Source of the DNA: an uncultured Anaerolineales bacterium
GTDB taxonomy: Bacteria; Chloroflexota; Anaerolineae; UBA1429
Direction of reading: 5' to 3'
Length of the DNA: 33,954 bases
Assembly: GCA_964614895.1 (NCBI GenBank)
Contig: CAZTMY010000001.1
Coordinates: 1 to 33,954 of the forward strand
Shown here piece by piece: positions 9,571 through 33,954 of the stretch; position 1 is the stretch's first letter, and each line of letters starts with the position of its first letter. Below the pieces are notes generated by a model that worked only from the letters and a program-made list of their open reading frames with translations, did no database searches and had not been told where the DNA came from. The translations under genes and the position numbers were made by a program.

Positions 9571-9599
9571 TTGGCGTTCCGTGCTGCTTGCCCTATACT
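9571..9599 (+). promoter_or_regulatory. Putative promoter for the URO-D-like / sulfatase bicistron
   Basis: TTGGCG (9571-9576), 17 nt, TATACT (9594-9599). The ATG is at 9634, preceded by GGGAGGA. Confidence 0.4.
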
Positions 9600-9633
9600 G
9601 AGGGCCGTTGTGCACACGCCCTTGGGAGGAAGC

Positions 9634-10623
9634 ATGAACCATGTCGAGCGTTTTCGGGCGCTGATGGCATTCCAGCCCGTAGATCGCCTACCTAGGTTAG
9701 AGTGGGCTACTTGGTGGGACCAGACCATCGAGCGCTGGCATCAGGAAGGCCTGCCCCCGCACTTGACCGATACGTACGACATCGATCTCTACTTTGGCCT
9801 TGACCCGCACAAGCAGTTCTGGTTCAGCCCGCGCCTGCGCAGCATGCCACCGCCAGCGCACCACGGGGCAGGCGTTATCGCGAACAGCGACGACTATGAA
9901 CGGCTACGCGTACATCTGTTCCCGCCGGTTGAGCCGCTCGTGGCCAACATGGCCCCCTTTGGCGAGTTGCAGGACCGGGGCGACTGTGTAGTTTGGTTCA
10001 CCATCGACGGATTCTTCTGGTACCCAAGAACCCTGCTCGGGATCGAACGTCACCTATACGCCTTCTATGATCAACCTGAGCTCATGCATCGCATGAACGC
10101 CGAGTACACGGAATGGGCCATCGACCTTGTCCACGCCATGTGTCGCGTCTGCAAACCCACGTACATGACCTTTGCTGAAGACATGTCGTACAATCACGGC
10201 CCGATGCTGAGCAAGAGCTTGTTCGACGAGTTCATAGCACCCTACTACCGGCGCATCGTGCCCGTGCTGCGCGAGTATGATATTCTGCCCATCATCGATT
10301 CCGATGGCGATATCACCAAGCTGGTCCCCTGGTTCGCCCAAGTGGATGTACACGGATTCCTGCCACTAGAACGCCAAGCGGGCGTCGATCTCGCCAGCCT
10401 GCGCGCAGAGCATCCGCGGCTCCGAGTCATCGGCCACTTTGACAAGATGACCATGACCCGCGGCACCGACGTCATGCGCGCCGAGTTCGAGCGCCTGCAG
10501 CCGATCATGGAGCAGGGAGGGTACATCCCCAGCGTGGACCATCAGACACCGCCGGGGGTGTCGCTGGCTCAATACCGGCAGTACTTGGCGCTACTCTGGG
10601 AATTCACGGCCAAGGCGCCATAG
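9634..10623 (+). CDS. Uroporphyrinogen decarboxylase (URO-D) family protein, paralogue 1, function unknown
   Basis: MNHVERFRALMAFQPVDRLPRLEW...; central FAEDMSYNHGPMLS..LFDEF; C-terminal IPSVDHQTPPGVS. This is the architecture of URO-D/MtaA-superfamily TIM barrels. I chose the ATG at 9634 with a good SD over the TTG at 9571. Confidence 0.7.
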   Translation: MNHVERFRALMAFQPVDRLPRLEWATWWDQTIERWHQEGLPPHLTDTYDIDLYFGLDPHKQFWFSPRLRSMPPPAHHGAGVIANSDDYERLRVHLFPPVEPLVANMAPFGELQDRGDCVVWFTIDGFFWYPRTLLGIERHLYAFYDQPELMHRMNAEYTEWAIDLVHAMCRVCKPTYMTFAEDMSYNHGPMLSKSLFDEFIAPYYRRIVPVLREYDILPIIDSDGDITKLVPWFAQVDVHGFLPLERQAGVDLASLRAEHPRLRVIGHFDKMTMTRGTDVMRAEFERLQPIMEQGGYIPSVDHQTPPGVSLAQYRQYLALLWEFTAKAP

Positions 10624-10639
10624 CAGAGAGGAGGCTCCC

Positions 10640-12082
10640 ATGCCAGACCGACCCAACATAGTCCTGATCATGGCTGATCAGTGGCGAGGAGACTGTCTCT
10701 CAGTGTACGGGCATCCGACCGTGTTCACCCCCTATCTCGACCAACTGGCGGGCCGAGGCGTACGGTTCACGCGAGCCTATTCGGCTACCCCAACCTGTAT
10801 TCCGGCACGCGCCGGCCTCTACACCGGGCAATCCCCGCGCACACATGGCCGGGTGGGCTACCGCGACGGCGTGCCTTGGAACTATCCCGTAACGTTGGCT
10901 GGCGAGTTCACCCGTCACGGCTACCAGACCGAGGCCGTGGGCAAGATGCACGTGTACCCAGAACGCTCGCTGATGGGGTTCCAGCATGTCACGCTGCACG
11001 ACGGCTTTTTGCACTTTGCCCGTAGCCGCCATGCCAATCTCGCCGAGGTCGATGACTATGTCCCCTGGCTCCGCGAGCGTCTGGGACGCGATGCCGACTA
11101 TTTCGAGCACGGGGTGAATTGCAACTCGATGGTTGTTCGCCCATGGGACAAGGAAGAGTACCTCCACCCCACCAACTGGGTCACCAGCCAGGCCATCCGG
11201 TTCCTGCAGCGGCGCGACCGCCGCCGTCCGTTCTTCCTGTTCGTTTCCTACCATCGCCCTCACCCACCCCTAGATCCTCCAGCATGGGCCTATGAGATGT
11301 ACGCCCATCAGAACATGCCTGATCCGCCCATCGGCGACTGGCACCGCATCTTTGCCGAATCCTCGGCGCCCCACCGGGCCGACCCACTCTATGCCCATCT
11401 GGACTCGCGCGCGCTCCAGATGGCACGCGCCGGTTACTATGGGCACATGACACACATCGATCATCAGATCAACCGCCTGCTCGAATCCCTTCCGGAGAAC
11501 GGCGTCGGGGACAACACGTACATCTGCTTCACGGCAGATCATGGTGAGATGCTGGGAGACCATCACCTCTTCCGCAAGGCGTACCCCTACGAGGGGTCAG
11601 CGCGAGTGCCGCTGCTGCTGGCAGGACCAAGTGGTTCTGGAATCGTGCCAGATAGCGTGAGCCACAACGTGGTTGAGCTGCGGGACATCATGCCCACGCT
11701 GCTGACCGCCGCGGGGCTCCCGGTGCCAAGCACGGTCGAAGGCAAGAGTCTGCTACCCCTCGCGCGCGGCGAGGATGTTCCTTGGCGGCCCTACCTCCAC
11801 GGGGAGCATACCGCCATCGGCCAATCCATTCAGTGGCTGACCGACGGACACACCAAGTACGTCTGGTTCAGCGGCACAGGGCAAGAGCAGCTCTTTGATC
11901 TGGTATCGGATCCCCAGGAGACGATCAACCTAGCCACCAGAGCCGATATGCAAACACAGCTTGAGCGCTGGCGGCGAATCCTTATGTCCGAGCTTTCCGG
12001 ACGTGAGGAGGGGTTCACAGACGGAGAGAGGCTGATCACTGGGCGGCCGGTGCGCCCTTGCCTGGCCCACGTGCGCGCTTGA
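10640..12082 (+). CDS. Sulfatase (S1 family, Cys-type), no signal peptide
   Basis: PNIVLIMADQWRGD at residues 5-18. The formylglycine signature TPTC(53)IPARAGLYTG has its Cys codon at 10796-10798. Downstream are GKMH, a DHG-type motif (TADHGEMLGDH) and a C-terminal LFDL..DP.E..NL motif. It lies 16 nt after paralogue 1, with GAGAGGAGG as SD. Confidence 0.9.
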   Translation: MPDRPNIVLIMADQWRGDCLSVYGHPTVFTPYLDQLAGRGVRFTRAYSATPTCIPARAGLYTGQSPRTHGRVGYRDGVPWNYPVTLAGEFTRHGYQTEAVGKMHVYPERSLMGFQHVTLHDGFLHFARSRHANLAEVDDYVPWLRERLGRDADYFEHGVNCNSMVVRPWDKEEYLHPTNWVTSQAIRFLQRRDRRRPFFLFVSYHRPHPPLDPPAWAYEMYAHQNMPDPPIGDWHRIFAESSAPHRADPLYAHLDSRALQMARAGYYGHMTHIDHQINRLLESLPENGVGDNTYICFTADHGEMLGDHHLFRKAYPYEGSARVPLLLAGPSGSGIVPDSVSHNVVELRDIMPTLLTAAGLPVPSTVEGKSLLPLARGEDVPWRPYLHGEHTAIGQSIQWLTDGHTKYVWFSGTGQEQLFDLVSDPQETINLATRADMQTQLERWRRILMSELSGREEGFTDGERLITGRPVRPCLAHVRA

Positions 12083-12174
12083 GTGGAAGCGCCCTTTAGC
12101 GCCCGATTAGCGTGCTCACCACTGGCGGTGCCACCAAGCAAGCGACTAGATCATCTAACTTGTGCGCGGCCGTG

Positions 12175-13158
12175 TCAGCGACCCGTCGCATAGACGTGAT
12201 AGGCCCGACTGTAACTGATGATGGCGTCCAGGCAGGCCGCCGCCTGTAGGAACACGCCTGCTACTTGCGAGGTGTACCCTATGATGCGAGCCATATCCCC
12301 CGCCGTCAGCCCGATCTGGTCCCGCCGAGCCAACGCCAGAAAGACAACCAGGAACTGACTGCCAATCAGCGCTGCGTATCGCAGATAGAGATACCATTGG
12401 TGGCGTGAAACCAGCTCCACAAATACCTCTTTTCGACGCCGCAACACATCGCGCAGACGATCGCGATGCGCCTCTTCCCGCGGCGCCGTGAGCGCGCGGA
12501 TACATGCCCCCTCCACCTGGTTGATCAGCCCATACTGGTCGTCACGCAGCACGCGCAAGCGATTGTTAAAGATCACCGTCATAGCGGCAGGGATCACCAA
12601 GCTTGCAAGATATGCCAGCCCCAACTGCGTGTTCATGGCGAGCAGGCTCGAAGAGACGACGATAATCTTGATGATCACCGGAAGAAACGAGCCCAAGACA
12701 TGGTAGGTGGCGTTGGTGATACCGCTAACCGCATTGGCGATACGGGCGTTGGCCTGTCCCGCGGCCTCGGCATCGATCTCGCGGCCCTCGTCGCAAAGCG
12801 CAACGGTCATCTGCACGCGCTTGGAGAAATCAGTCTCGTAGAACATCTTGTGGCGCAATACGATGTTGCCGCGCAAGACCAGAGGTGCCAGCAGGGACGC
12901 GCCGAGAAATAGCAAAACGACGCTACCCAGATCCGCCGTAGAGAACCGATCGATGAACTCGCCCAATAGACTGACGGGCCACAGCGCCACAATCTCCTGG
13001 ATCGCTGTTACCACCAGGATGGCGAGAGCGTACCACTTGTAATCCATGATCAGACCCCAGACATCGCGCCAGAAAGCGGCGTTGGAATCCGTCGCCATGG
13101 GCCCAGAAGGGCGCCTAGCAAACAACCTTGAGATTGGGGATCGTCTGGGAGTGCTCAT
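12175..13158 (-). CDS. ABC exporter-type transmembrane domain protein lacking a nucleotide-binding domain
   Basis: The 327-aa ORF has the six-helix layout and long intracellular-loop helices of type I ABC exporter TMDs. No Walker A/B or LSGGQ is present anywhere in the ORF. Only 92 nt remain before the convergent sulfatase gene. Confidence 0.5.
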   Translation of the reverse strand: MSTPRRSPISRLFARRPSGPMATDSNAAFWRDVWGLIMDYKWYALAILVVTAIQEIVALWPVSLLGEFIDRFSTADLGSVVLLFLGASLLAPLVLRGNIVLRHKMFYETDFSKRVQMTVALCDEGREIDAEAAGQANARIANAVSGITNATYHVLGSFLPVIIKIIVVSSSLLAMNTQLGLAYLASLVIPAAMTVIFNNRLRVLRDDQYGLINQVEGACIRALTAPREEAHRDRLRDVLRRRKEVFVELVSRHQWYLYLRYAALIGSQFLVVFLALARRDQIGLTAGDMARIIGYTSQVAGVFLQAAACLDAIISYSRAYHVYATGR

Positions 13159-13336
13159 TCTCAGGTACCACCATATTCGACTAGGAACTCGGCATGAACC
13201 GCGATGATACGTCTGATTCCCCAGGATGCAAATGCGCGAGCGTGATCCACACGCACGCTTGCCAACACGCTGGATGGTAGCTATGTTATGGCGTCACTTG
13301 GGTATGAGAAGAGTACAATCGCAAGCGAGGCACCTC

Positions 13337-14419
13337 ATGAGTATGACGGGCAAAGAACGGATGGAACGCATCCTCCGCCACGAGCCGGTGGACCGCATCG
13401 GCCTGATGGAACATTTCTGGTCAGACACGGCAAGCGCTTGGACGAGCCAGGGCCACCTTCAGCCAGGAGAGAACCTAGCGGATCATTTCGGTTTTGACCT
13501 CGAGCTAAGCTGGGCGCTCAACATGGTGGCAGATCTGGACTGGGAGCCCGAGGTGCTCGATGAGACGGACGAGACCATCCTCACGCGCAATGGCAACTAT
13601 GCCGTGATGCGTACGCACAAGCTACACGACGCCACACCAGAACACGTCGATTTCGCCGTCAAGGGACGCGAGGCTTGGGAGGAACTGATCAAGCCCAAAC
13701 TCACGCCCGATCCGCGCCGCATCAACTTCCAGGCGTACCGCGAGACCAAAGAGCGAGCCGCCAAGGCTGGCCGCTTCTTTATGCTGTCAGGCGTGAACGT
13801 ATTCGAGATCATGAAGGACGTCACCGGTCATGAGCACATGCTCGTAGGCATGGCGCTGGACCCCGACTGGGTGCGCGACATGGCCGACACGTACGCGCAT
13901 CTGATCATCGAGCTACAGGAGATGCTATTCGCCCAAGAGGGCTGGCCCGACGGCATCTGGTACTATGAGGACATGGGATTCAAGGCCAAGCCCTTCATGT
14001 CGCCGCGCATGTACAAGACCATCGTCCAACCGGCTCACGAGCTGACCCTAGGCTTTGCCAAGGAGCACGGCTTGCCGACGATCGTCCACTCGTGCGGCTA
14101 TATCGAGCCTCTCATCCCGGGGCTCATTGAGGCCGGCATGGACTGCCTGCAAGTCATTGAGGTGAAAGCGGGCATGGATCTGCTCAAGCTTTATGCCGAG
14201 TTTGGCGACCGCATCTCGTTCATGGGCGGCATCGACGTGCGCGTGCTCTATACCAACGATAGAGCACAAATCGACGCCGAGCTGGAGGCCAAGATCCCCA
14301 CCGTCATGCAGAACAACGGCTATGTCCTCCACAGCGATCACTCGATCCCCAACACGGTACACTATGACACGTATCGCTACTTTATCGACAAAGGGCTCGA
14401 GCTAGGGACGTATCGCTAG
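13337..14419 (+). CDS. URO-D family protein, paralogue 2 (carries an H-x-C-G motif), function unknown
   Basis: MSMTGKERMERILRHEPVDRIGLMEHFW...; YYEDMGFKAKPFMSPRMY; TIVHSCGY (His-Ser-Cys-Gly codons at 14087-14098); VLHSDHSIPNTV. Same fold signature as paralogue 1. I chose the ATG at 13337 over the start at 13226. Confidence 0.7.
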   Translation: MSMTGKERMERILRHEPVDRIGLMEHFWSDTASAWTSQGHLQPGENLADHFGFDLELSWALNMVADLDWEPEVLDETDETILTRNGNYAVMRTHKLHDATPEHVDFAVKGREAWEELIKPKLTPDPRRINFQAYRETKERAAKAGRFFMLSGVNVFEIMKDVTGHEHMLVGMALDPDWVRDMADTYAHLIIELQEMLFAQEGWPDGIWYYEDMGFKAKPFMSPRMYKTIVQPAHELTLGFAKEHGLPTIVHSCGYIEPLIPGLIEAGMDCLQVIEVKAGMDLLKLYAEFGDRISFMGGIDVRVLYTNDRAQIDAELEAKIPTVMQNNGYVLHSDHSIPNTVHYDTYRYFIDKGLELGTYR

Positions 14420-14434
14420 GCACACGCACATAGG

Positions 14435-14467
14435 AAAGCGGGCGGACGCTCCACGTCCGCCCGCTTT
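14435..14467. terminator. Bidirectional intrinsic terminator hairpin
   Basis: AAAGCGGGCGGACG (14435-14448) / loop CTCCA / CGTCCGCCCGCTTT (14454-14467) is a perfect 14-bp stem. The A-run on one side and T-run on the other give a U-tract on both strands. It lies between convergent genes. Confidence 0.7.
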
Positions 14468-14478
14468 TCGCTCCCAAG

Positions 14479-15984
14479 CTAGTGCCCCGGCGGCAGCGCC
14501 GCATCCGCCGGAGTCGGTAGCGGCCCTTCAGGTGGCTGCGGCACGGGTAGGGCATCCTCCGTCATGATGGCCCAATCTCCCAGCCGCTGCCGCAAGTTCG
14601 CCTCCACCGCGGCGTACGCTGGCTCCGCTGCCACGTTCCTCAGCTCCCAGGGATCGTTCTCCAGATCGTAAAGCTCATCCAGATCGCCCATGGGGTCATG
14701 GACGTACTTCCAGCGACGGGTGCGGATCATCTTCCGCCTTCCCTCGGCCTCGCGCCAACGCAGCGAGCGCAGGAGCGACGCCCGGCCACGCGGGGCATCC
14801 AGCGCCCGCAGATCATCCATGGTGAAAGCCGGCCCACCGCAGCCATACTCCGAGAACGCCGCATCGCGCGGCGCGGCCTCTGTCACCGTGGGCAAAGGAT
14901 GGCTCTGAACCCACCAAGGTATCGTGTCGCCCTGCAGCGTCATCAACGTAGGCACCACGTCCACCAAACTGACCATGCTGTCATCAACCACCCCCTCGGG
15001 GACGTTTCCGGGCCATGACACCACCATGGGAATGCGGGTCAGCGCGTCGTAAAAGACCCCGCCTTTGCATTGCATGCGGTGCTCCCCAGCAAAGTCGCCG
15101 TGGTCCGCGCAGAACACAACTATAGTGCGCTCACGGAGGCCGAGACGCTCCAGCGCATCTAGAATCTGTCCCAGAGCATCATCCAGAAAGCGCACCATGC
15201 CATAGTAGGCCGCCAGCAGGCCATAGATGTGCTCCGTGGGCTCGTCCTCCAAGCCGAGCATCTGATAGAGCACGCGGTTACGCTCAGGTGCGCCGTCGAG
15301 CTCGCCTTCGCGCCAGGGCGGAAGCTCGATTACGTCAGGCGAAAACATCTCGGCATAGCGACGAGGCGCTTCGTAGGGCTCGTGCGGATCCGGGAACGAG
15401 ACCCACAGCGCAAAGCGGTCCTCTTGGTGCTGCTCCAAGAACCGCTCTGTCTGTAACGCCACCAGGCCTGTGCCATAGTCGGCCAAATGGTAGTCCGTGT
15501 GCGCGTACGAGAACATGGGGCTGACGTCTGGCATGTGGCGTCGCACGCTGTGAGCGCGGATCACGCCGTCAATGGGCCGCGCCCAGGCCAAGCCCACTGG
15601 CGGCTCGGAAGCGGGCCCGCCGTGGCTGATCTCGCACCACGTCCCAAAGAGCGCGCGGTTGTCCGCATCGTAGAAGCAGTGGTTCTTGCCGATGAGGCCA
15701 CAGTGGTAGCCCTGCTGATGCCAGTGAGCAAAGGCGTGCGGCCGCCCGACCGGCATCGGGGTCTCGTTGCGTCGCGCCCCATTCTGGTGGGGATAGCTAG
15801 CAGTCCAGAGGGCCACGCGCGCTGGCATGCATAGCGGATGCGGGGTGAAGGCGTGCCGAAAGGTCACTCCCTCGTCAGCGAGCCGCTGGAGTGACGGCGT
15901 CTGGCAGAAGGTATTGCCGTACAGATGGCTGGCAGTAGCTTTGAGCTGGTCGCACATGATGACGAGGATGTTGGGCTGGGGCAT
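14479..15984 (-). CDS. Sulfatase (S1 family, Cys-type), no signal peptide
   Basis: PNILVIMCDQ at residues 4-13. The signature is PLC(52)MPARVALWT, with the Cys codon at 15829-15831 (minus strand). Also CADHGDFAGEH and a C-terminal LYDLENDPWELRN. AGGAGG lies just upstream of the ATG. Confidence 0.9.
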   Translation of the reverse strand: MPQPNILVIMCDQLKATASHLYGNTFCQTPSLQRLADEGVTFRHAFTPHPLCMPARVALWTASYPHQNGARRNETPMPVGRPHAFAHWHQQGYHCGLIGKNHCFYDADNRALFGTWCEISHGGPASEPPVGLAWARPIDGVIRAHSVRRHMPDVSPMFSYAHTDYHLADYGTGLVALQTERFLEQHQEDRFALWVSFPDPHEPYEAPRRYAEMFSPDVIELPPWREGELDGAPERNRVLYQMLGLEDEPTEHIYGLLAAYYGMVRFLDDALGQILDALERLGLRERTIVVFCADHGDFAGEHRMQCKGGVFYDALTRIPMVVSWPGNVPEGVVDDSMVSLVDVVPTLMTLQGDTIPWWVQSHPLPTVTEAAPRDAAFSEYGCGGPAFTMDDLRALDAPRGRASLLRSLRWREAEGRRKMIRTRRWKYVHDPMGDLDELYDLENDPWELRNVAAEPAYAAVEANLRQRLGDWAIMTEDALPVPQPPEGPLPTPADAALPPGH

Positions 15985-16072
15985 GAGACCTCCTGGCAGC
16001 TAGACGACGGGGAGATTGCACAGCCTGCCCGATAAAGCGCGCCGCCTCCATAGCGTGGGGTCAAACCTCCTA

Positions 16073-16327
16073 GCACCCCACCACCGTTGGCGCCGCTAGA
16101 TCCGGGTAGAGACCCGCCATGGGAATACCCACCTCGATGGCAAGAGACACGAGCCACTCGATGGTGGCACGTGCCTCGGTGGTCAGCGGGATGCCTCCCT
16201 TGGCCATGGTGAGCGCAATCAGCTTGGCGCCATGCTTGGCCTAGGTCGAGTTGATCATCGCTCGCTTCTTGGCCGGCTTGGCCTCTAGCTCCAGAAATGT
16301 GGTGCCCAACGCGTCTAGCGCCTCACC
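16073..16327 (-). pseudogene. Possible decayed fragment of a pterin-binding (MeTr/MtrH/MetH-type) methyltransferase domain
   Basis: My translation of the minus strand gives GEALDALGTTFLELEAKPAKKRAMINST*AKHGAKLIALTMAKGGIPLTTEARATIEWLVSLAIEVGIPMAGLYPD. An in-frame TAG sits at 16241-16243 and stops lie at both ends. The pattern INS-x-...-K.GA.(V/L)IAL-...-GIP.T.E.R-...-A.E.GIP-...-D resembles the central strands of pterin-binding barrels. The match is made from memory only. Confidence 0.3.
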
Positions 16328-16521
16328 CTAGGGAATCCGCCCCTGTAGGCCACTCCCACGACGCCCAGCATCAAACCAGCGAACGATGCCATATACGTCA
16401 AGCCGTTGAGCGCAAACGTGGATGGCAAGATGTGCAACACCATCAGCAACGCCAACATGACGCTCAAGCACATGAGAACGATACCGACAATCAGATACAG
16501 GGAGCCCCTGGACGCTCTCAC
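16315..16521 (-). CDS. Hypothetical small membrane protein (two predicted TM helices)
   Basis: 68-aa ORF with LYLIVGIVLMCLSVMLALLMVLHIL and a second hydrophobic stretch. Its GTG start overlaps the upstream ATPase stop (GTGA, 16518-16521). It could instead be a chance ORF in the decayed region. Confidence 0.35.
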   Translation of the reverse strand: MRASRGSLYLIVGIVLMCLSVMLALLMVLHILPSTFALNGLTYMASFAGLMLGVVGVAYRGGFPRVRR

Positions 16522-17540
16522 TGGAAAAGCCAGCAGGCCGCCGTATGGTTCGGCTCAATCTCAAACTCGGGCGGCTGCTCGACGTCGCAGAGCCCCGCGA
16601 TCGCGCGGCTGCACCGGGGGTGGAATCGGCACCCGGCAGGCGGATGCACCAAGCTCGGTGGCTCGCCAGGCGGCACATCCTTGAATTTTAACGCGTTCTC
16701 TGGATCGGGGTCCGAGGTAGCCGCAAGAAGAGCCAGTGTGTAGGGATGGCTGGGATTCGCCAGGAGGTCGTCCACCTTGGCCTTTTCAACAATCTGCCCC
16801 GCGTACATTACAAAGATCCGCTCGGAAAAGTAGCGTACGGTGGACAGATCATGCGTGATATACATCACTGCGAGGCCGTGCGCTTCTTGCAGCGCGCGCA
16901 TCAGTCTGAGGATCTCCACGCGGATGGATGCGTCCAGCATCGACACAGGCTCGTCAGCCACCAGCATCTCGGGCTGCAGGATCATGGCGCGCGCGATTAC
17001 CACACGTTGCTGCTGACCCCCGCTCAGCATGTGCGGGAACTTGGTTATAAAGTCCTCAATCGGGGTGAGCTTGACCTCTTCAAGCGCCTGAACGATCCGC
17101 TCCTGCCGCTCCTCCTTGTCGCGCACACCATTGATGACCAGCGGCTCCTCTATGATTCGCGAGATCGTCATGAACGGCGGCAGAGCACCAAAAGGATCCT
17201 GCTGCACGTATCCCACGTGCGATCGGTACCACTGCATCTCTCGCGAGCCAAGCTCGCTTACATTGGTACCCTCAAAGACGATCTCGCCCTCCGTAGGGAG
17301 ATGCAGCCCAAGAATCGCCTTCATGAGCGTTGACTTGCCACAGCCACTCTCGCCCACCACCGCAATGGCCTCGCCATAGCCAAGATCAAAGCTCACACCG
17401 TCGACAGCGCGAACCGAACCCGCATGCCCAAAGCCCCAACGCCGAAGCTCAAACCAGATCCGTAGGTCCTTGACGGACAGCATCACTTCCTGGGTTCTGT
17501 CCGTTTCCACTCGCGACGAGGAGCTAGCTACCACATCCAT
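16518..17540 (-). CDS. Opp/Dpp-family ABC transporter ATP-binding protein (OppF/DppF-like)
   Basis: Walker A GESGCGKST, signature LSGGQQQRV, Walker B LVADEPVSMLD, and a Cys-rich oligo_HPY-type C-terminus (GCRFHPRC...C...ACW). I preferred the ATG at 17540 with an AGGAGA SD over the TTG at 17567. Confidence 0.9.
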   Translation of the reverse strand: MDVVASSSSRVETDRTQEVMLSVKDLRIWFELRRWGFGHAGSVRAVDGVSFDLGYGEAIAVVGESGCGKSTLMKAILGLHLPTEGEIVFEGTNVSELGSREMQWYRSHVGYVQQDPFGALPPFMTISRIIEEPLVINGVRDKEERQERIVQALEEVKLTPIEDFITKFPHMLSGGQQQRVVIARAMILQPEMLVADEPVSMLDASIRVEILRLMRALQEAHGLAVMYITHDLSTVRYFSERIFVMYAGQIVEKAKVDDLLANPSHPYTLALLAATSDPDPENALKFKDVPPGEPPSLVHPPAGCRFHPRCSRAIAGLCDVEQPPEFEIEPNHTAACWLFQ

Positions 17541-17622
17541 TAGGTTCTCCTGATCCCACACCCCCAACGCGCCTCAGACACGCTCGCGGCCCTGTCAGCA
17601 ATACCCGCTCCCAGGCCGTCGT

Positions 17623-21111: not shown

Positions 21112-21285
21112 GTTTGTCTCACTCTCACAAAAAGCGCTCTCTACCACCCTATCAGCCCGGTCTACTGGGCCGAGGCCTGACCTCAATCCGTGAGCCTACA
21201 GCAATCAGCACAACGTATCCGTTCAGCACTCCGGAGGGACACGACGTGTCGTGTCCCTCCGGCGCAACTCTCGGTCTCGTACCAG

Positions 21286-26910: not shown

Positions 26911-26935
26911 TCGCCGTCGCGCTCTGGCGTGCCGC

Positions 26936-28417
26936 CTAGGCATCCGCTGGGCGCGTCCGATCACCCTCGCGGATCTCCCGCAGCCGAGCCGACATCCTCT
27001 CCACGATGGCCGTCTGCTCCCTGGCCACGTTCCTGATCTGCCCGATGTCCAGCGACAAGTCGTAGAGCTGCGGCACGGGCGCATTGCCCGTCTCTATCCC
27101 GGTCGTGCTGCTGACGGCTGGCCCCTCATGAGGCGGGATATAGGCCCAGTTTCTCTGCCGGAGCACCGTCTTGCCCTGGGTTCCTTCGGTGACCAACTCT
27201 GTACGACCCTCCTCCGTTCTGCCGAGGAGCGCCGCAAGCACGTCGAACGAATCGGGAGCTGCATCGGGCCTCAGGGGGATCCCCACCAGCGAAGCGAACG
27301 ATGCGAGGAAATCCACGTGACTCACGATGGCCTCCGACTGGCCAGGCTCCACGGTGCCAGACCAACGAAGGATAAACGGAACGCGCGTGCCGCCGTCGTA
27401 CATGCTATACTTGCCGCCCCGCAGCGGTCCTGTCGGTCGGTGATCGCCGCAAAGCTCAACGGCCTTATCTTGGTAGCCATCGTCCAGGACTGGCCCATTA
27501 TCGCTCGAGAACAGGACGATCGTGTTCTCACCAATCCCCAGCTCATCCAAGGTACGCACCATCTCGCCGACACACCAATCCATCTCCGCGATGACATCCC
27601 CTCGGGGACCGAGCTTGGTGGCGCCCACGAAACGCTTGCCCGGTATGCGCGGGACGTGCGGCTGGTGCAGAGCATAGTACAGGAAGAAGGGGCCATCCCG
27701 ATGCTCACGCACGAACAAAGTCGCTTGGTCGAGAAAGACCTCGGCCATCTCGTCGTCCTTCCAGAGGGCCGTTCTGCCGCCCCTCATGTACCCAATCCGG
27801 CTGACCCCATTCACGATGGTCATGTCATGGCCGTGGCTGGGCCGCATGGCGAGCAGCTCTGGGTTGTCACGCCCCGTTGGCGTACCCGGAAAGGGATTGC
27901 TGGCCTCATAGCTCACCTCGATGGGGTCCGTGGGATCGAGATTGGACACGTGTCGGCCATCGACATAGACGCAGGGGACGCGGTCGTTGGTGGCAGCCAT
28001 GATGAAGGAGCGATCAAAGCCTAAGTCAAGAGGCGTCAGGGGGATCTCATCGTTCCAATCGAGGTCGCCGTCGCCCAACCCGAGATGCCACTTGCCGACG
28101 ATGGCGGTGTGGTAGCCCGCTTGCTTTAGCAGGGAGGGCAAGGTTAGCATGCCAGGAGGGATGATCAGCGGCGCATCGCCGGCCAGAATGGCGGCCCTCT
28201 GGTTGCGCCAAGGATACGAACCCGTCAGCAGGCTGTAACGCGAAGGCGTGCATGTGGCGGCGGTGGCATAGCCCTGCTGGAACCGGATCCCCTCAGCAGC
28301 GAGCTGATCGACATTGGGGGTGGGAATGCCGGTGCCGCCGTAGCATCCGACATCGCCAAAGCCGATATCGTCTGCGTACATGATCACGATATTGGGACGT
28401 GTGCTACGCTCAACCAT
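26936..28417 (-). CDS. Sulfatase (S1 family, Cys-type, arylsulfatase-A-like), no signal peptide
   Basis: PNIVIMYADDIGFGDVGCYG. The signature is ATC(56)TPSRYSLLTG, with the Cys codon at 28250-28252 (minus strand). Also GKWHLG and SDNGP. I preferred the ATG at 28417 (GGAAGGAG SD 8 nt upstream) over 28444 or 28546. Confidence 0.9.
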   Translation of the reverse strand: MVERSTRPNIVIMYADDIGFGDVGCYGGTGIPTPNVDQLAAEGIRFQQGYATAATCTPSRYSLLTGSYPWRNQRAAILAGDAPLIIPPGMLTLPSLLKQAGYHTAIVGKWHLGLGDGDLDWNDEIPLTPLDLGFDRSFIMAATNDRVPCVYVDGRHVSNLDPTDPIEVSYEASNPFPGTPTGRDNPELLAMRPSHGHDMTIVNGVSRIGYMRGGRTALWKDDEMAEVFLDQATLFVREHRDGPFFLYYALHQPHVPRIPGKRFVGATKLGPRGDVIAEMDWCVGEMVRTLDELGIGENTIVLFSSDNGPVLDDGYQDKAVELCGDHRPTGPLRGGKYSMYDGGTRVPFILRWSGTVEPGQSEAIVSHVDFLASFASLVGIPLRPDAAPDSFDVLAALLGRTEEGRTELVTEGTQGKTVLRQRNWAYIPPHEGPAVSSTTGIETGNAPVPQLYDLSLDIGQIRNVAREQTAIVERMSARLREIREGDRTRPADA

Positions 28418-28758
28418 TTGCCAGGACTCCTTCCACTCTGCCATGTCTAAAACCCTATTCAGACCGATCGTACTGCCCCTAGTCGGGAATTCTGGCGCTC
28501 GCCACGTCGCTCCTCTTCGCCCACGTCCTCTTGCCTTGTCGTGCATGCTAGCGCGGCCTCAGGAACCGACAGAGGTCCCATGTCCGTGCTCCACGAGCGA
28601 TGGCCCCTGACCCAGGCCGCCCCCACAGAACCGCCGAGGGTCGCCGAACCGTTGGACACGCGTCAGCCGGAGGCCACGGCGACGGAAAGCCCGGAGACAC
28701 CATCGGCAACAAGACGCCCTTGCGACGAATCTATGCTCCCGGGATGCCACCCGAAAGT

Positions 28759-29742
28759 TCAGACGTGTAGCTCCACGATATCGCCGTCCGAAAGCACATA
28801 GTCCCTGGCGACCCTTTGCCCGTCATAGACCCGCTCACCCCAGACGCGCGCTGACTTGAGCTTCTCGTAAAAGTCGCGATGAACCTTGGCGGCAAAATCC
28901 GCCACAGTGCTCCCTTGCTCGAGCGTAAAGGGCGCATCCAGATCGGGCGGCTGGCCCGGCACCTTGGAGTACACGCGGATCACGCCAAGGTGTTCAAACA
29001 CGCGCGCCTTTAGCAGGTCCAGGTGCCGTCCAGTGGTGGCGGATACATCCAGCGCCGGCCAGTCGTCCTCCAGCAACAGACAAAATAGCTCGAACAGCTC
29101 GGAAGACGCGTCATCGTCGCTCTTGTTGGCCACAATCAAAAGAGGGATGAACGTTCCCGCGTCAGGCCCATACGCCTCCAGGCTTTGCAGGGGCAGGATG
29201 CGGTGCTCTCGCAGGAGAGCCAGCGTCTGCTCGAACTGGTCCACTGGATTGGCCTGCAAGTCCACCACGAGCAACACCAAGTCGGCTCGCCGAATGAGGT
29301 CGAGAAGACCCGGCTCGGTAAAGTCGGCGCTAAGCGGCGGCGTGTCGATGAGTTGAATCTGAATATCGCCATAGGGCATCATCCCGGGGGTTGGCTCCCA
29401 GGTTGTAAAGGGGTACTCGGCAACCTCCGGCTTGGCATTGGTAAGGGCGCTTACCAGCGCCGACTTGCCCACGTTGGGCGCCCCGACCAGCACCACCTGC
29501 CCGGCCCCCTCCTTGCCAATGGCATAGGGCGACACACGCCGCGTACCGGTCTTGCGGGACCGCGAGGTGCGCCGCAGCTCTGACAGGCGACGACGCAGAT
29601 CCGCGCGCAGTTTGTCGGTGCCCTTGTGTTTGGGCACCAAACTGAACATCTCCTCGAGACGCGCAATCTTTTCCTCGATGGATTCGGCCTCGCGGAATAG
29701 CCTCTCGGCCGCGTGATAGTCAGGAGGTAGATTGGTTGGCAT
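28759..29742 (-). CDS. DRG/Rbg-like OBG-class GTPase with C-terminal TGS domain
   Basis: N-terminal helical segment KHKGTDKLRADLRRRLSELRR, G1 GAPNVGKS, G2 region YPFTT, G3 DTPP, G4 NKSD. The C-terminus LGVIRVYSKVPGQPPDLDAPFTL..GSTVADFA.KVH.DF......ARVWG.......Q.V..DYVL.DGDIVEL matches the DRG S5D2L/TGS arrangement. Start ATG at 29742. Confidence 0.85.
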   Translation of the reverse strand: MPTNLPPDYHAAERLFREAESIEEKIARLEEMFSLVPKHKGTDKLRADLRRRLSELRRTSRSRKTGTRRVSPYAIGKEGAGQVVLVGAPNVGKSALVSALTNAKPEVAEYPFTTWEPTPGMMPYGDIQIQLIDTPPLSADFTEPGLLDLIRRADLVLLVVDLQANPVDQFEQTLALLREHRILPLQSLEAYGPDAGTFIPLLIVANKSDDDASSELFELFCLLLEDDWPALDVSATTGRHLDLLKARVFEHLGVIRVYSKVPGQPPDLDAPFTLEQGSTVADFAAKVHRDFYEKLKSARVWGERVYDGQRVARDYVLSDGDIVELHV

Positions 29743-30040
29743 GACCCCCAGCTCCCAAAGCGTGAGGCCCCAGACACGTACGGGCGCGCCTCTTGCGAGC
29801 GGTTGGCGTTCTACCGCAGCAGAGGATTCCCACACCACCAAACGCATCATACCACAAGCACGTTGACCAATTCCAGGCCAGATGTGCCTCCGAGCGAGAC
29901 GCTCAGAGGCAAAGATGCTGGGTCCTCGTCAGCACAAGCCAAGTCGGAGAGGGAGATCACGGCCACGCGCGGTCGCACACCAACGGAAACTGAAGGCGTG
30001 TTCAGCTTCGGTAACATTCTATATGAGGGATCGCGTGGCC

Positions 30041-30069: not shown

Positions 30070-30097
30070 GGCCCCATAATCCTTGCAGGAGGTAAGC

Positions 30098-32512
30098 ATG
30101 CGAGTTCCTTGTGAGACCAATCCCTTCCCACCTCTGGACATTCCAGGTGTGAACGAATCGGCCAGCTTCCCAGCCCGTTGGGTGTGGCATCCCGATGTAA
30201 GCCCAGAGGAGCCTACCGTACTTGCGTTTCGACGTGCGTTCACTCTGGACGAGCCGCAGACGGTACGCATCCACGTGAGCGCGGATCATCGCTATGAGCT
30301 ATTCCTCGACGGCGAGCGCCTAGGGCGCGGCCCAGAGCGCGGCGACCCTGCCCATTGGTGCTTTGAGACCTATCGTCTCGAGCTCTCGGCAGGCGCTCAC
30401 CTATTAGCTGCGCGTGCTTGGTGGTTCCCCGAAGATGGCTCGCCAATGGCCCAGATGACCATCGTGCCCGGGTTCCTGCTTTACGCTGAAGGGCCTCTTG
30501 CCGAGACGCTCTCCACTGGCTCTGGTGATTGGCAGGTGACCAAGATCACCGCGTACGAACGCGAGCCAATCGACATGCGGGCCTACTATGTGGTGGGCTG
30601 GTCCTTTGCGGTGCATGGCAGTCAGTATCCGTGGGATTGGCAAACGGATCCAGCCGCGGTAGCCGACTGGGTGCCCCCCGCCGTCCTGCGACCGCCCGCA
30701 GATGGCCATAGCAACCGCTACTACTCGTGGGAAACACCACAACGCAAGCTGGACCCCCACCTAATGCCCGCCATGCTGCCGCCCATGATGGAAACGCCAC
30801 GCAACGTGGGCCGCGTGCGGCACGCCGCATGGCTCAAGCCCGAGGGATTTCTAAAGGTCAACGCTGAAGAGCATGATAGCAAGCTCGCCGCTGACATCCA
30901 GTCCATGCTGGATGGTAACGCCCCGCTAGAGATCCCGGCCGGGCAGTCCTTCCGCGCGATCATCGACCTAGAGGATTACTACTGCGGCTTTCCCGAGATC
31001 ACGACGACGGGCGGCGCCGGCACCCATATTACCGTGGGTTGGGCTGAGGCGCTATATGAGATCCACGAGGGTCAATGGCCATCCAAGGGGAACCGGGACG
31101 TCATCGAAGGCAAAGTATTCTACGCGCCTCACGATCGCTTCATCCTGGAGGGTGGCGATGCCCGCACTTATGACACCCTCTGGTGGCGCGCGGGACGCTA
31201 CATCGAGCTAACCGTACAGAGCGGTGACGCTCCAGCGACGTTAAACGCCCTGCGCGTGCGCGAGACCCGCTACCCTCTGGAGCGCGAGGGCACCTTTGCC
31301 TCCAGCGATCCACGGATGGAGGAGGTCGCACCGATCATGCTCCGCGCGCTGCAGATGTGCTCCCATGAGACCTACATGGACTGCCCTTACTATGAACAGC
31401 TCATGTACGTGGGTGATACGCGCCTAGAGGTCCTGGCCACCTATGTCACGACCTCGGATCCGCGCTTGCCCATCAAGGCTTGCCGGCTCTTTGACTGGTC
31501 ACGTAGCCCCGATGGTCTTACCAAGAGCCGCTACCCCTCCGAGATTCCCCAAGTCATCGCGCCCTTTAGTTTGTGGTGGGTGTCGATGGTACATGACCTA
31601 CACATGTGGCGCCAGGCTGATGATACCGTCCGCGAGCTACTCCCCGGCATCGACGCCGTGCTGACGGCCTTTGCCGGCTATCGCGACGATGATGGCCTAG
31701 TAAGCGCCGTGCCCGGTTGGAACTATTGCGACTGGGTGCGAGAGTGGCCTGCCGGATGCCCTCCCGACAGCCGCCACGGCGCCAACGCCCTCATCAACCT
31801 GATGTACCTCTATGCGCTGGAGCGGGGCATCGCCCTGCATGAAGACATGGAGGAACCGCACCTGGCCGCACATTGGCGACAGGTAGCCGATGCACTTCGG
31901 CCGTCCATCGTCAAGGCCTTCTGGGATGATCAACGCGGCCTACTGGCTGATGACCACGCCCATACCTGCTATTCCGAGCACGCGCAGTCCTTGGCAATCT
32001 TGACCCACCTGCTAGATGGGGCGCGCCACGAGCGCCTGGTAGAAGGGCTGCTGGGAGCCAGCGACCTCGCTCGTACCACCATCTACTTCTCGCACTATTT
32101 GCTGGAGGCGCTGCGTGAGATCGGACGCGGCGATCTCCTCATCCAGAAGCTGGGCTTTTGGTATGGCCTGCAGGAACGTGGCCTCAAGACGACCAGCGAG
32201 TCGCCCGAGCCAACGCGCTCGGACTGCCACGCCTGGGGCGCGCACCCACTCTACCACTACTATGCCTCGATACTCGGCGCCAGGCCCAGCGCGCCCGAGT
32301 TCAGGCGTGTGCGAATTGCACCACAGCTCGGAGAGCTCACCTCCATTGCCGGAGAGATGCCACACCCGTCTAGCGATACCATCCGCTTTGACCTACAGCG
32401 CGAGGGTGAGAGGCTAACGGGCGAGATCTGGCTCCCCGAGGGCGTCTCGGGCGAACTCGTCTGGGGCGACATACCACGTCCGTTGACGCCTGGGCGCAAC
32501 GCGCTGGCCTAG
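30098..32512 (+). CDS. Alpha-L-rhamnosidase-like glycoside hydrolase (GH78-type six-hairpin enzyme), no signal peptide
   Basis: The N-terminal segment ARWVWHPD...AFRRAF.L......RIHVSADHRYELFLDGERLGRGP is typical of the rhamnosidase N domain. The catalytic-domain motif is ETYMDCPYYEQLMYVGDTRLE. The C-terminus reads SDCHAWGAHPLYHY....LG..P....F..V.I.P. Confidence 0.7.
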   Translation: MRVPCETNPFPPLDIPGVNESASFPARWVWHPDVSPEEPTVLAFRRAFTLDEPQTVRIHVSADHRYELFLDGERLGRGPERGDPAHWCFETYRLELSAGAHLLAARAWWFPEDGSPMAQMTIVPGFLLYAEGPLAETLSTGSGDWQVTKITAYEREPIDMRAYYVVGWSFAVHGSQYPWDWQTDPAAVADWVPPAVLRPPADGHSNRYYSWETPQRKLDPHLMPAMLPPMMETPRNVGRVRHAAWLKPEGFLKVNAEEHDSKLAADIQSMLDGNAPLEIPAGQSFRAIIDLEDYYCGFPEITTTGGAGTHITVGWAEALYEIHEGQWPSKGNRDVIEGKVFYAPHDRFILEGGDARTYDTLWWRAGRYIELTVQSGDAPATLNALRVRETRYPLEREGTFASSDPRMEEVAPIMLRALQMCSHETYMDCPYYEQLMYVGDTRLEVLATYVTTSDPRLPIKACRLFDWSRSPDGLTKSRYPSEIPQVIAPFSLWWVSMVHDLHMWRQADDTVRELLPGIDAVLTAFAGYRDDDGLVSAVPGWNYCDWVREWPAGCPPDSRHGANALINLMYLYALERGIALHEDMEEPHLAAHWRQVADALRPSIVKAFWDDQRGLLADDHAHTCYSEHAQSLAILTHLLDGARHERLVEGLLGASDLARTTIYFSHYLLEALREIGRGDLLIQKLGFWYGLQERGLKTTSESPEPTRSDCHAWGAHPLYHYYASILGARPSAPEFRRVRIAPQLGELTSIAGEMPHPSSDTIRFDLQREGERLTGEIWLPEGVSGELVWGDIPRPLTPGRNALA

Positions 32513-32607: not shown

Positions 32608-32642
32608 GCCGGGAGCCGCCCGTGTGACGGGCGGCTCCCGGC
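32608..32642. terminator. Strong GC hairpin between convergent GH78-like and OsmC genes
   Basis: GCCGGGAGCCGCCCG (32608-32622) / loop TGTGA / CGGGCGGCTCCCGGC (32628-32642) is a perfect 15-bp stem. The flanking U-tracts are weak. Confidence 0.6.
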
Positions 32643-32660
32643 AATGCTATCCAGCCGACG

Positions 32661-33119
32661 TCAGGCTCCTACAGGCTCCGGTTGACAAACGCGATAGCTC
32701 TCTGCGACCGACACGCCCGAGAGCGTATCCTTCACAGGGCAACGCTCGAGTGCCAGTTCGATTAGCTCGTTCACCTTATGCTGTGGCTCTGGCGATGCTA
32801 CGTTCACCTTGACCCGGATGTCCTGAAAGCCGGGCCGTACGGGCGCTTTCCCGGTGAACCCATCGGAGTCCAGATCGCCCTCCAGATCCACGCTCAAGTC
32901 GTCGATCTGCAAGCCCTGTTCCTGCGCATAGGCCGAAACCAGAACAGCGATGCATCCCCCCAAAGCCGATAGCAGCAGTTCAACCGGGTTCATAGCTCGG
33001 TTGGTGCCACCTAGTGACTCGGGCTCGTCCATGGCAACCTCAAAACCGCGGAAGCGGCTTGTCACATAGACCCCCTGCCCCGACCACTTTGTGCTCCCCT
33101 TGAATGTCATCTTGGCCAC
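32661..33119 (-). CDS. OsmC/Ohr-family peroxiredoxin-like protein
   Basis: GGTNRAMNPVELLLSALGGC(I)AV ... and the C-terminal LALERCPV carry the two conserved Cys contexts of OsmC. The GTG at 33119 sits 6 nt after AGGAGG; the alternative ATG at 33110 is 15 nt away. Confidence 0.85.
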   Translation of the reverse strand: MAKMTFKGSTKWSGQGVYVTSRFRGFEVAMDEPESLGGTNRAMNPVELLLSALGGCIAVLVSAYAQEQGLQIDDLSVDLEGDLDSDGFTGKAPVRPGFQDIRVKVNVASPEPQHKVNELIELALERCPVKDTLSGVSVAESYRVCQPEPVGA

Positions 33120-33163
33120 AATCTGCCTCCTCACAACTAGCTGTGCATCTTGACTGCACACAT

Positions 33164-33192
33164 AAGATAACATACTTGAGTATTTTTGTCAA
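33164..33192 (-). promoter_or_regulatory. Putative promoter for the OsmC-family gene in an AT-rich divergent region
   Basis: On the minus strand: TTGACA (33192-33187), 17 nt, TATCTT (33169-33164). The spacer contains the inverted repeat ATACT-CA-AGTAT. Confidence 0.4.
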
Positions 33193-33303
33193 ATTACATC
33201 AGAGAACATTTGGAAATGGCCCGCATCTTGCCCGCTTGACAGGTCGCCGTAGCCGCACTTGAATGCTGTGGTGGCTTTTCATCGTCGCCCAGGAGCTTTT
33301 GCA

Positions 33304-33954
33304 ATGAACCAACGCCAACGCATGCTCGCCGTCATCCGCGGCGAGCCGCTCGATCAGGTCCCCTTTGTGCAGTATGACAACATGTGCGCGCCCAACGAGA
33401 TCATCTGGCAAGCCTTGGGCGCCAATAGCATGGGCGTGCTCCGGTGGACCACGGTTCATCGCGTGGAGCATCCGCACTGCCGGTTCGTTACCGAGGAGGC
33501 CCTGATTGATGGCAAGCCCGGCTGGCGTGACACGCTCATCACGCCAGCGGGCACGCTCACCCAGGAACGCGTGCGTGTGAGTGGGCTGGGCGTCAGCGCC
33601 TACGCCAAGCATTATGTCGAGTCGCTGTCCGACTATGCACTCGTACGCGCCTACCTGCGCGACGCCATCGTGCTTCCAGACATAGAGCCCACCGTCAGGG
33701 CGCACCGTGAGCTAGGGGATCATGGACTCCCTCACGTCGCCCTAACGCGCACGCCCTACCAGCAGATGTGGGTCCAGTGGGTGGCCCTCACTGACTTTTG
33801 CCTGCACCTAGCGGACGATCCCGGCATCGTCGGCGAGTGCATGGATCTGATGGGCCAAGAGGTGCTGAGGATAGCCGAGATCGCTCGCCAGGCGTCTCGT
33901 GAGACGCTGATCCCTTACGTGGATATGCCAGACAATATCACAGCAGGCCCCATT
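33304..33954 (+). CDS. URO-D family protein, paralogue 3 (3' end outside the window; not in the supplied ORF track)
   Basis: My translation from the ATG at 33304 (AGGAG 8 nt upstream) stays open for 217 codons to the window end: MNQRQRMLAVIRGEPLDQVPFVQYDNMCAPNEIIWQALG...YVDMPDNITAGPI. The N-terminal R....L.GEP.D.VP and (Y/F).(E/D)M......P segments parallel paralogues 1 and 2. Confidence 0.7.
   Translation, partial: MNQRQRMLAVIRGEPLDQVPFVQYDNMCAPNEIIWQALGANSMGVLRWTTVHRVEHPHCRFVTEEALIDGKPGWRDTLITPAGTLTQERVRVSGLGVSAYAKHYVESLSDYALVRAYLRDAIVLPDIEPTVRAHRELGDHGLPHVALTRTPYQQMWVQWVALTDFCLHLADDPGIVGECMDLMGQEVLRIAEIARQASRETLIPYVDMPDNITAGPI

Follow-up and report, generated by a model that had tools for sequence, protein, structure and literature searches.

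The window analyzed in this work is a stretch of 33,954 nucleotides from an uncultured Anaerolineales bacterium (contig CAZTMY010000001.1 of assembly GCA_964614895.1), and the genes in question lie in its last 24 kb (positions 9571-33954). The gene map, which is based on a listing of open reading frames (ORFs) and on Pfam and NCBIfam scans of the window, places in this stretch three sulfatases, an enzyme of the alpha-L-rhamnosidase type of glycoside hydrolase (GH) family 78, a 702-aa putative glycosidase resembling family GH36, two proteins of the URO-D/MtaA type and the operon of an Opp-type ABC importer. A preliminary description of this DNA, made from the sequence alone, had taken these genes for one utilization locus, built around the Opp importer, through which sulfated (rhamno-)oligosaccharides would be taken up and then dismantled in the cytoplasm. 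The analysis reported here leads to a different view of the arrangement: the 24-kb stretch is probably not one co-evolved locus.

The three sulfatases anticipated in the preliminary description are all confirmed by the Pfam domain PF00884 (E values of 1e-42 to 3e-54) and by CxPxR motifs. Sulfatase #1 (10640-12082, plus strand; E 1.5e-50) reads CIPAR, sulfatase #2 (14479-15984, minus strand; 1.3e-42) reads CMPAR and sulfatase #3 (26936-28420, minus strand; 2.7e-54) reads CTPSR, the ORF of the last one opening at 28546 with M43, at 28420, as its likely start. The motifs usual for metal binding and catalysis are present in all three as well, namely GK.H, either DHG or DNG, and a DQ or DD close to the N-terminus, and by sequence they are catalytically complete Cys-type S1 sulfatases. 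They were placed in subfamilies by similarity to the PDB structures of characterized members. Sulfatase #3 falls unambiguously in S1_15 by this comparison: its best matches are 7OZE (574 bits, 3e-171) and 7OZC (555 bits), with the N-acetylgalactosamine (GalNAc)-6-O-sulfatase BT3333 (6S20) at 535 bits (2e-159) and 9BAS and 9BAU, which are labelled S1_15A/B, at 466-496 bits (1e-147 for 9BAS); the next family scores below 186 bits. The Asp-Arg-His galactose recognition triad of S1_15 has been defined in the structure paper within FIMAATGDRVP and HDQSIV. The corresponding segments of sulfatase #3 are FIMAATNDRVP and HDMTIV, which keep the triad and make a specificity for 6-sulfated galactose (Gal) or GalNAc, i.e., a Gal/GalNAc-6-O-sulfatase, the best prediction for this protein. 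Its orthologue in the nearest relative (locus L001) has 494 aa.

For sulfatase #1 the NCBIfam arylsulfatase model PRK13759 gave 679 bits, over its cut-off of 481 bits. The best PDB match is EfAS (9KOQ), the Mn-arylsulfatase of Enterococcus faecium (1e-117, 397 bits, full length), followed by BT1918 (7OZ8), an S1_46 sulfatase of 3-sulfated N-acetylglucosamine (GlcNAc; 1e-100, 341 bits). Of the four specificity residues of BT1918, Y94 (GRVGYRDG), N174 (CN for WN) and R327 (FRK) have equivalents in sulfatase #1 and Y408 has none, its motif HATCY being missing. The motifs GRVGY, CNS and FRK(A/G)YPY(E/Q)GS are shared with EfAS. Sulfatase #1 is best described as S1_46-like, with a nearer homologue, EfAS, which is an arylsulfatase in vitro and desulfates the sulfotyrosine peptide caerulein as well as estrone sulfate (PMC12421950). 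The assays of EfAS were made with esters of the aryl, steroid and sulfopeptide types, and no glycosidase context has been reported for it. The PDB matches of sulfatase #2 are distant (4UPI and 4UPL, ~1e-44, both deposited as "sulfatase family protein"), which leaves its subfamily unclassified. The expectation that the sulfatases belong to carbohydrate-active subfamilies thus holds for #3 and may hold for #1 as an S1_46-like protein, with the reservation that EfAS is closer to the latter. The proposed substrate, rhamnan sulfate or ulvan, was dropped because the sulfatase similarities do not lead there: the ulvan sulfatases 6HR5 and 6HHM match all three window sulfatases only distantly, at 1e-26 to 1e-33 as compared with best matches of 1e-44 to 1e-171.

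Sulfatase #3 lies tail-to-tail with the gene of the 702-aa protein (24697-26805, plus strand), for which no Pfam, NCBIfam or PDB sequence match was found at threshold. Glyco_hydro_36N is sub-threshold (E 0.077, 12.9 bits; cut-off 27), a profile of the family searched against PDB sequences gave at best a GH31 at E 0.71, and a look-up of the exact sequence returned no record. The AlphaFold (AF2) model (pLDDT 87.6, pTM 0.90) is composed of an N-terminal beta-sandwich, a (beta/alpha)8 barrel and a C-terminal beta-sandwich, an architecture which it has in common with the GH36 enzymes AgaA, AgaSK and FpGalNase (9AWT). In Foldseek the top 25 matches were all GH36 alpha-galactosidases or galactosaminidases (best E 6e-21, TM score ~0.6, probability 1.0), followed by GH31 and GH97. 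The protein differs from these GH36 enzymes in its sequence, which is only 12% identical and matches no Pfam Melibiase or GH36 model at threshold. Seven acidic residues located at the ends of barrel strands are invariant in the family (D347, D351, D449, E494, D497, D560, and D564); among these D449 (FLMFDGNWW, strand 445-449) and D560 and D564 (strand 556-560) are candidates for the two catalytic Asp residues of the GH36 type, a nucleophile after beta-4 and an acid/base after beta-6. More than 700 homologues of ~700 aa share over 50% identity, none of them with a Pfam domain and nearly all annotated as "hypothetical", in Anaerolineae, Caldilineaceae, Latescibacterota, Hydrogenedentota, Planctomycetota, and Bacillota. 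When 1.84 billion representatives were searched with a profile of the family, 568 clusters (at 50% identity) were identified in Chloroflexota, Planctomycetota, Latescibacterota, Hydrogenedentota, and Bacillota, and some members are fused to an N-terminal CBM-like PF14683 domain. It should be noted that one NCBI record names a member "alpha/beta hydrolase", a name which the fold does not support. Across 83 loci the neighbors of the GH36-like genes encode short-chain dehydrogenases (SDR; 13), GH2 (9), zinc-dependent alcohol dehydrogenases (7), GH38 (7), GH42-like proteins (6), Opp-type permeases (6), M24 peptidases (5), sulfatases (5), URO-D-like proteins (5), and gluconolactonases (5); in all five of the loci with a sulfatase, this gene is at most ~0.9 kb from the GH36-like gene. 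The GH36 fold of the model, taken together with the carbohydrate-related neighbors and operons, makes the 702-aa protein a probable glycosidase of carbohydrate catabolism. The preliminary call of a second putative glycosidase is in this way backed by the fold of the model and not by any sequence match.

Two proteins belong by sequence to the URO-D superfamily of TIM barrels. The ORF of URO-D#1 opens at 9571, with the likely start M at 9634, and ends at 10623 (plus strand; Pfam URO-D 5.4e-12), 17 bp upstream of sulfatase #1 on the same strand; co-transcription is therefore probable, and the two genes probably form one operon. URO-D#2 (13337-14419, plus strand; 360 aa; 5.5e-13) is 23% identical to URO-D#1. 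Both exceed the PF01208 cut-off and give weak scores with the NCBIfam models for HemE, MtaA, and CmuA (15-37 bits as compared with cut-offs of 235-303), which would set them outside the HemE and MtaA equivalogs. URO-D#2 has over 3600 homologues; the best 120 of them, all from Anaerolineae/Chloroflexi and Planctomycetota, show 69-86% identity. Its motif HSCG is invariant in the family alignment and holds an HxC which we take to be the first part of an MtaA-type zinc site; at the spacing usual for such a site no second conserved Cys was found, and URO-D#1 has DSDG in place of HxC. The AF2 model of URO-D#2 (pLDDT 93) matches HemE and MtaA equally, with TM scores of 0.64-0.72 (HemE 0.70, MtaA 0.64-0.69) at 11-16% identity. 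The neighbors of its orthologues vary (an enolase-superfamily dehydratase, an aldo-keto reductase, another URO-D, or none of these), and no sulfatase or Opp gene stands beside them in the neighborhoods read. Elsewhere, URO-D-like genes are found inside glycosidase operons, which supports a sugar-related role: the co-directional order GH36-like, DUF4432-like, URO-D, GH38, GH38 occurs in three loci (L121, 56-10205; L124, 9821-17752; L136, 1467-11759), and a fourth (L014, 1654-6226) has a co-directional operon of GH95 and two URO-D genes. These contexts point to an unassigned sugar-processing role of this URO-D/MtaA branch. A full-text search of the literature identified no paper joining URO-D with sulfatases in Anaerolineae or Chloroflexi, nor one on a cytoplasmic sulfatase together with an oligosaccharide ABC transporter. 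The third URO-D-like enzyme of the preliminary description was not recovered: the ORF concerned (33304-33954, plus strand), known from the six-frame reading, runs past the window end with at least 217 aa and no family assigned, and searches of it with Pfam (to E 10), NCBIfam, a hidden Markov model of URO-D-like relatives and BLAST found nothing, hhalign aligning only 23 N-terminal residues at a probability of 3.6%.

The product of 30083-32512 (plus strand) belongs by sequence to the GH78 alpha-L-rhamnosidases, as had been proposed: PF17389 (Bac_rhamnosid6H) is matched at 3.6e-17 (63 bits; cut-off 24.5), PF17390 (Bac_rhamnosid_C) only below threshold, and RhaB of Bacillus (2OKX) at 7e-47 over residues 361-769. 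The location of this and the other enzymes was judged by a hydropathy heuristic and by whether the ORFs could be extended upstream. None has an N-terminal hydrophobic segment, a TAT motif or a lipobox. Within their first 70 residues the Kyte-Doolittle score over 12 residues does not exceed 1.4 (as compared with 2.75-2.97 for the importer's binding protein, OppC and a cell-wall amidase of the window), and their ORFs cannot be extended to give a longer N-terminus. In agreement with the preliminary description, the enzymes, most of them of carbohydrate-active types, are thus predicted to be cytoplasmic.

The Opp operon, the other half of the original proposal, lies on the minus strand between these enzyme genes. 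It encodes an 865-aa family-5 (Opp/Dpp-type) lipoprotein substrate-binding protein (SBP; 21286-23883; Pfam SBP_bac_5, 3e-23), the permeases OppB (19984-21186) and OppC (18626-19969), both with BPD_transp_1, and the ATPases OppD (17623-18624) and OppF (16518-17567), both with ABC_tran and oligo_HPY. It is by these domains an importer of the Opp/Dpp (PepT) family with a lipoprotein SBP, as had been described. The SBP carries the lipobox MIGRSKRWAAVLTIVVTAAMVLSAC, and its ORF as listed has to be shortened to begin at M29, in agreement with the database copy of 865 aa. There are over 1900 homologues; the best PDB match is 7FI3 (3.6e-27), and the papers citing that entry are AlphaFold benchmark papers only. 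A repetitive E/V/K-rich linker, VVVEKEVPVEKTVEVEKVVKETVVVEKEVEVEKEV, follows the lipobox (residues ~30-70; window 23600-23810, minus strand), and a C-terminal extension of ~130 residues reaches past the family-5 fold; both appear typical of an orthogroup of 850-870 aa. A sixth gene of the operon (16315-16521), the start of which overlaps the stop of OppF, encodes a 68-aa protein with two predicted transmembrane segments and is homologous to a 66-aa ORF after OppF in locus L004 (17359-17559). Using tblastn, such proteins of 64-68 aa were found directly after OppF in 37 loci, including those of Pseudothermotoga, Halobacteroidaceae and Acetothermia and locus L013 (9496-9699), and they would seem to be a sixth subunit, or an accessory, that annotation of this type of Opp has missed.

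Conservation of the neighborhood had been set beforehand as the check on the integrated locus, and it was addressed by a synteny scan with one genome per GTDB species, which yielded 52 loci with an orthologous SBP (43-89% identity) from Anaerolineae, Chloroflexia, Caldilineaceae, Pseudothermotoga, Halobacteroidaceae, Acetothermia, Elusimicrobia, Spirochaetales, and one archaeon of the Thermoproteota. Every protein of the window was run by tblastn against these loci (797 kb). The block of SBP and OppBCDF is retained in ~43 of the 52, and none of the 52 has a sulfatase, GH36-like or GH78 gene within 10 kb of Opp; two further Opp contexts agree in having no such neighbors. Non-synteny, one of the outcomes by which the preliminary description would be refuted, was thus found, and as the Opp orthologues are conserved without these enzymes the locus cannot be said to be "built around" Opp. 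The recurring neighbors are instead an ECF sigma factor (13 loci), a second SBP_bac_5 (11 loci), an amidohydrolase, and TrmD. At the closest orthologue (L024, 89% SBP identity, in the same metagenome-assembled genome as L001) adenosine kinase, PepF, PepX, IMP cyclohydrolase, a URO-D-like protein and PEPCK are encoded upstream of the SBP, the cytoplasmic peptidases PepX (S15) and PepF (M3) preceding it at 3745-7436. At L013 (74% SBP identity) URO-D#2 and a membrane protein are kept after OppF, BipA takes the place of sulfatases #1 and #2 and URO-D#1, and sulfatase #2 has no counterpart at the orthologous position. At L014 (73%) DegV adjoins the SBP and the GH95 and URO-D operon mentioned above is 4 kb away, while the Pseudothermotoga orthologues (L045 and L057) have GH13 and PepF genes upstream. 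With peptidases and GH13 both near orthologues, the substrate class of this Opp orthogroup is ambiguous. L001 keeps the GH36-like gene together with those of the S1_15 sulfatase and a GTPase, syntenic at 79-83% identity; Fur/FeoA flank them on one side and a mechanosensitive channel on the other, and neither an Opp nor a GH78 gene is present. Only sub-modules recur, namely GH36-like, S1_15 and GTPase in L001 and Opp, URO-D#2 and the membrane protein in L013. The relatives differ outside of these; stability is thus limited to small sub-modules, and the arrangement as a whole is peculiar to the genome of the window.

The explanation towards which we lean is that the stretch holds a loose, lineage-specific cluster of cytoplasmic enzymes trimming sulfated or otherwise decorated oligosaccharides, next to which the Opp operon is probably a bystander. 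On the best reading the targets would be sulfated oligosaccharides containing Gal, GalNAc or GlcNAc, and rhamnose, small enough to be finished off in the cytoplasm after uptake. Sulfatase #3 would take the 6-O-sulfate off Gal or GalNAc and the GH36-like enzyme would then cleave the exposed alpha-galacto-type residue, the two forming a plausible functional pair; sulfatase #1 may take off a sulfate of the GlcNAc-3-O or aryl type, GH78 may release alpha-L-rhamnose, and the URO-D/MtaA-like TIM barrels may do an accessory step on the sugars. The Opp operon would be an ancient module of six genes (SBP, BCDF and the small membrane protein), its substrate fixed by its own orthogroup and more likely to be peptides or another ubiquitous oligomer, and a genome rearrangement would have placed it beside the enzyme genes. 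With Opp as a bystander, the importer of the sulfated sugars is not identified within the window. The sequence of import and intracellular breakdown put forward in the preliminary description is supported as regards enzymes that are cytoplasmic by sequence, and loses the support of synteny as regards Opp as the importer. A bolder extension, which we put forward as tentative, is that two new players in cytoplasmic glycan catabolism are present: the GH36-fold family could be a new GH family of clan GH-D, acting here with S1_15 on 6-sulfated alpha-Gal/GalNAc-type residues, and the URO-D/MtaA-like proteins could perform a sugar-decoration step new to their superfamily, e.g., zinc-dependent O-demethylation of methylated deoxy-sugars, or decarboxylation.

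Several observations weigh against the loose cluster with a bystander Opp, and some of them favor other explanations. Sulfatases and URO-D-like genes are each near the GH36-like gene in only 5 of 83 loci, a minority pattern. Although the triad of sulfatase #3 is kept, marine sequences make up ~65% of S1_15, and the triad is missing from nearly 70% of these. No match to FGE-sulfatase or radical-SAM families, as would be expected of FGE or anSME, was found in the Pfam scans of the ORFs of the 34-kb window. Opp-family transporters do share operons with GH36-like genes in three loci (L148, L122, and L142), the first in the order GntR/LacI, SBP_bac_5, OppB, OppC, GH36-like, GH38, GH99-like; together with the GH13 genes adjoining the Pseudothermotoga orthologues, these operons mean that a sugar could still be the substrate of the window's Opp, and the adjacency of Opp and enzymes could reflect local co-use. 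The joining of Opp with GH36-like and GH38 genes in L148 and the GH13 genes of Pseudothermotoga also speak for the single utilization locus of the preliminary description, as do the presence of all parts within 24 kb, the strong enrichment of sulfatases over related DNA, an SBP that is the sole lipoprotein among cytoplasmic enzymes, and URO-D-like genes near Opp in all three of the closest relatives (L013, L014, and L024). We nevertheless consider that model unlikely. It has to contend with the 52 Opp orthologues, none near a sulfatase, GH36-like or GH78 gene, with relatives of 74-89% SBP identity that have peptidases, DegV or BipA at those positions, and with sulfatase subfamilies that do not indicate rhamnan sulfate or ulvan. 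The genes of the stretch moreover fall into nine or more transcription units, spread over both strands and with housekeeping genes between them, and a gap of 330 bp lies between the end of the Opp operon and sulfatase #2. Neither a regulator gene in the 24 kb nor a riboswitch in the window was found; a shared operator was not evident either, since seven upstream or divergent regions have six 8-mers in common, as compared with a mean of three and a maximum of ten in shuffled sequence.

A non-carbohydrate function of the sulfatases would also undo the loose cluster of glycan-trimming enzymes. Aryl, steroid or sulfotyrosine peptide esters would then be scavenged for sulfur or carbon, possibly as sulfopeptides imported by Opp, and the glycosidases would be unrelated neighbors. 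Such a function would accord with the PRK13759 score of sulfatase #1, whose nearest characterized homologue works on aryl and tyrosine sulfates and not on sugars, with the peptidases adjoining the nearest Opp orthologue, and with sulfatase #2, which has no informative relative and best matches 4UPI and 4UPL, which we take to be promiscuous arylsulfatases. It is very unlikely in our view, as sulfatase #3 is a clear S1_15 with the galactose triad intact, sulfatase #1 keeps three of the four residues by which BT1918 recognizes GlcNAc, a sulfatase stands beside the GH36-like family in four further loci, and no peptidase is encoded in the window. That the clustering has no functional meaning at all, the genome perhaps being rich in sulfatases, carbohydrate-active enzymes (CAZymes) and URO-D paralogues which were rearranged side by side, would fit the mixed orientations, the unrelated genes in between and a gene order that differs around every sub-module even in the closest relatives. 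The frequency of sulfatases argues otherwise, with three genes in 24 kb here as compared with none in the 797 kb around the 52 Opp orthologues and five in 730 kb around 80 GH36-like homologues, a baseline which is however the DNA of relatives around homologues and not the sulfatase density of the host genome. The adjacency of GH36-like and sulfatase genes moreover recurs independently in five loci, the pair being kept in L001, and the genes of URO-D#1 and sulfatase #1 share a strand with 17 bp between them. We regard clustering by chance as quite unlikely, and retain the loose cluster of cytoplasmic enzymes as the preferred explanation.

Three genes that interrupt the stretch had been left out of the preliminary description. 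One is that of a 327-aa polytopic membrane protein (12175-13158, minus strand; sub-threshold Pfam ABC_membrane, E 0.0048), which resembles the transmembrane domain of an ABC exporter without the ATPase domain and which has an 81% identical copy in L013 (11035-12036), divergent from the URO-D#2 orthologue. The others are a housekeeping GTPase of the DRG/Obg type with a TGS domain (28759-29850, minus strand; MMR_HSR1 and TGS), which has no part in any sugar function, and an OsmC-like peroxiredoxin (32661-33173, minus strand; OsmC, 3.4e-24), which is likewise unrelated to sugar functions. Two non-coding gaps of unusual length were observed, one of 813 bp (23884-24696) between the divergent SBP and GH36-like genes and one of 330 bp (15985-16314) after the Opp operon; neither contains a convincing ORF or an Rfam match, and the Rfam scan of the window as a whole gave no match. 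Upstream of the cluster there are, in order, a glutamine synthetase fragment, an MFS transporter, RmlC, an IF-2B/MtnA-like protein, the cell-wall amidase, RmlD, two GT2 glycosyltransferases and a 7TM-PAS-GGDEF protein. RmlC, RmlD and the two GT2 enzymes mark a cluster for cell-envelope polysaccharide biosynthesis (2145-7661), behind which the 7TM-PAS-GGDEF diguanylate cyclase follows (7919-9520). This cluster indicates that the cell itself makes rhamnose-containing polymers, and GH78 could serve their turnover. Chimerism of the contig was also considered: the G+C content is even along the window (~0.58-0.64), two independent assemblies reproduce positions 10502-15000 at 99.1-99.6% identity, and the only records given by a look-up of the sulfatase #1 sequence were two short contigs from the same population.

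Anaerolineae are already reported to encode large suites of CAZymes without signal peptides, along with sulfatases, and have been described as "downstream" degraders of oligosaccharides freed by primary degraders (bioRxiv 10.1101/2022.05.18.492586; ISME Commun PMC9723792). The CAZyme and sulfatase clusters of Anaerolineae and Verrucomicrobia in Shark Bay mats, which were read as serving the intracellular breakdown of sulfated EPS, resemble the present stretch in the class of organism, in glycosidases without signal peptides, in the presence of sulfatases and in the inferred order of uptake and cytoplasmic breakdown. That study is however a census at the genome level, in which no locus is defined, no Opp is named and neither the dark GH36-like family nor URO-D-like partners appear. 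As intracellular glycan breakdown has been proposed for this class before, the general idea is not new, and the contrast with the SusC/D polysaccharide utilization loci (PULs) of Bacteroidota drawn in the preliminary description is less novel than it seemed. Bacteroidota have PULs that act on sulfated glycans of hosts or algae; among them, those of B. thetaiotaomicron carry S1_15 and S1_46 sulfatases (bioRxiv 10.1101/2021.07.23.453482). The likeness of the window to Bacteroidota PULs consists in the same S1 subfamilies co-located with exo-glycosidases and in the conserved galactose triad of S1_15; it differs from them in having no SusC/D pair, signal peptides, sensor or regulator, in being divided into several units of non-conserved synteny, and in that its Cys-type sulfatases are predicted to be cytoplasmic. 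Ulvan PULs of Formosa contain GH78 and S1_25. Thermotoga maritima reportedly has oligosaccharide transporters of the Opp/Dpp family, composed of a family-5 SBP, two permeases and two oligo_HPY ATPases, beside cytoplasmic glycosidases. This arrangement is seen here for another Opp, in L148, whereas the Opp of the window, with its 865-aa SBP, belongs to a different orthogroup whose 52 orthologues are unlinked to glycosidases and sulfatases except for the GH13 of Pseudothermotoga.

Three leads emerge from this work, namely a GH36-fold family that lacks annotation, its neighbors of the URO-D-like type in glycosidase operons, and a small membrane protein conserved with this type of Opp. The case also illustrates that adjacency to an ABC transporter is insufficient to assign the substrate of that transporter. 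If the enzymes do act together, they would show how monoderm Chloroflexota complete the degradation of sulfated glycans inside the cell, candidate substrates being Gal, GalNAc and GlcNAc sulfates of the algal, cyanobacterial or animal type, and such an intracellular finishing step would matter for the turnover of carbon and sulfur in mats, sediments and digesters.

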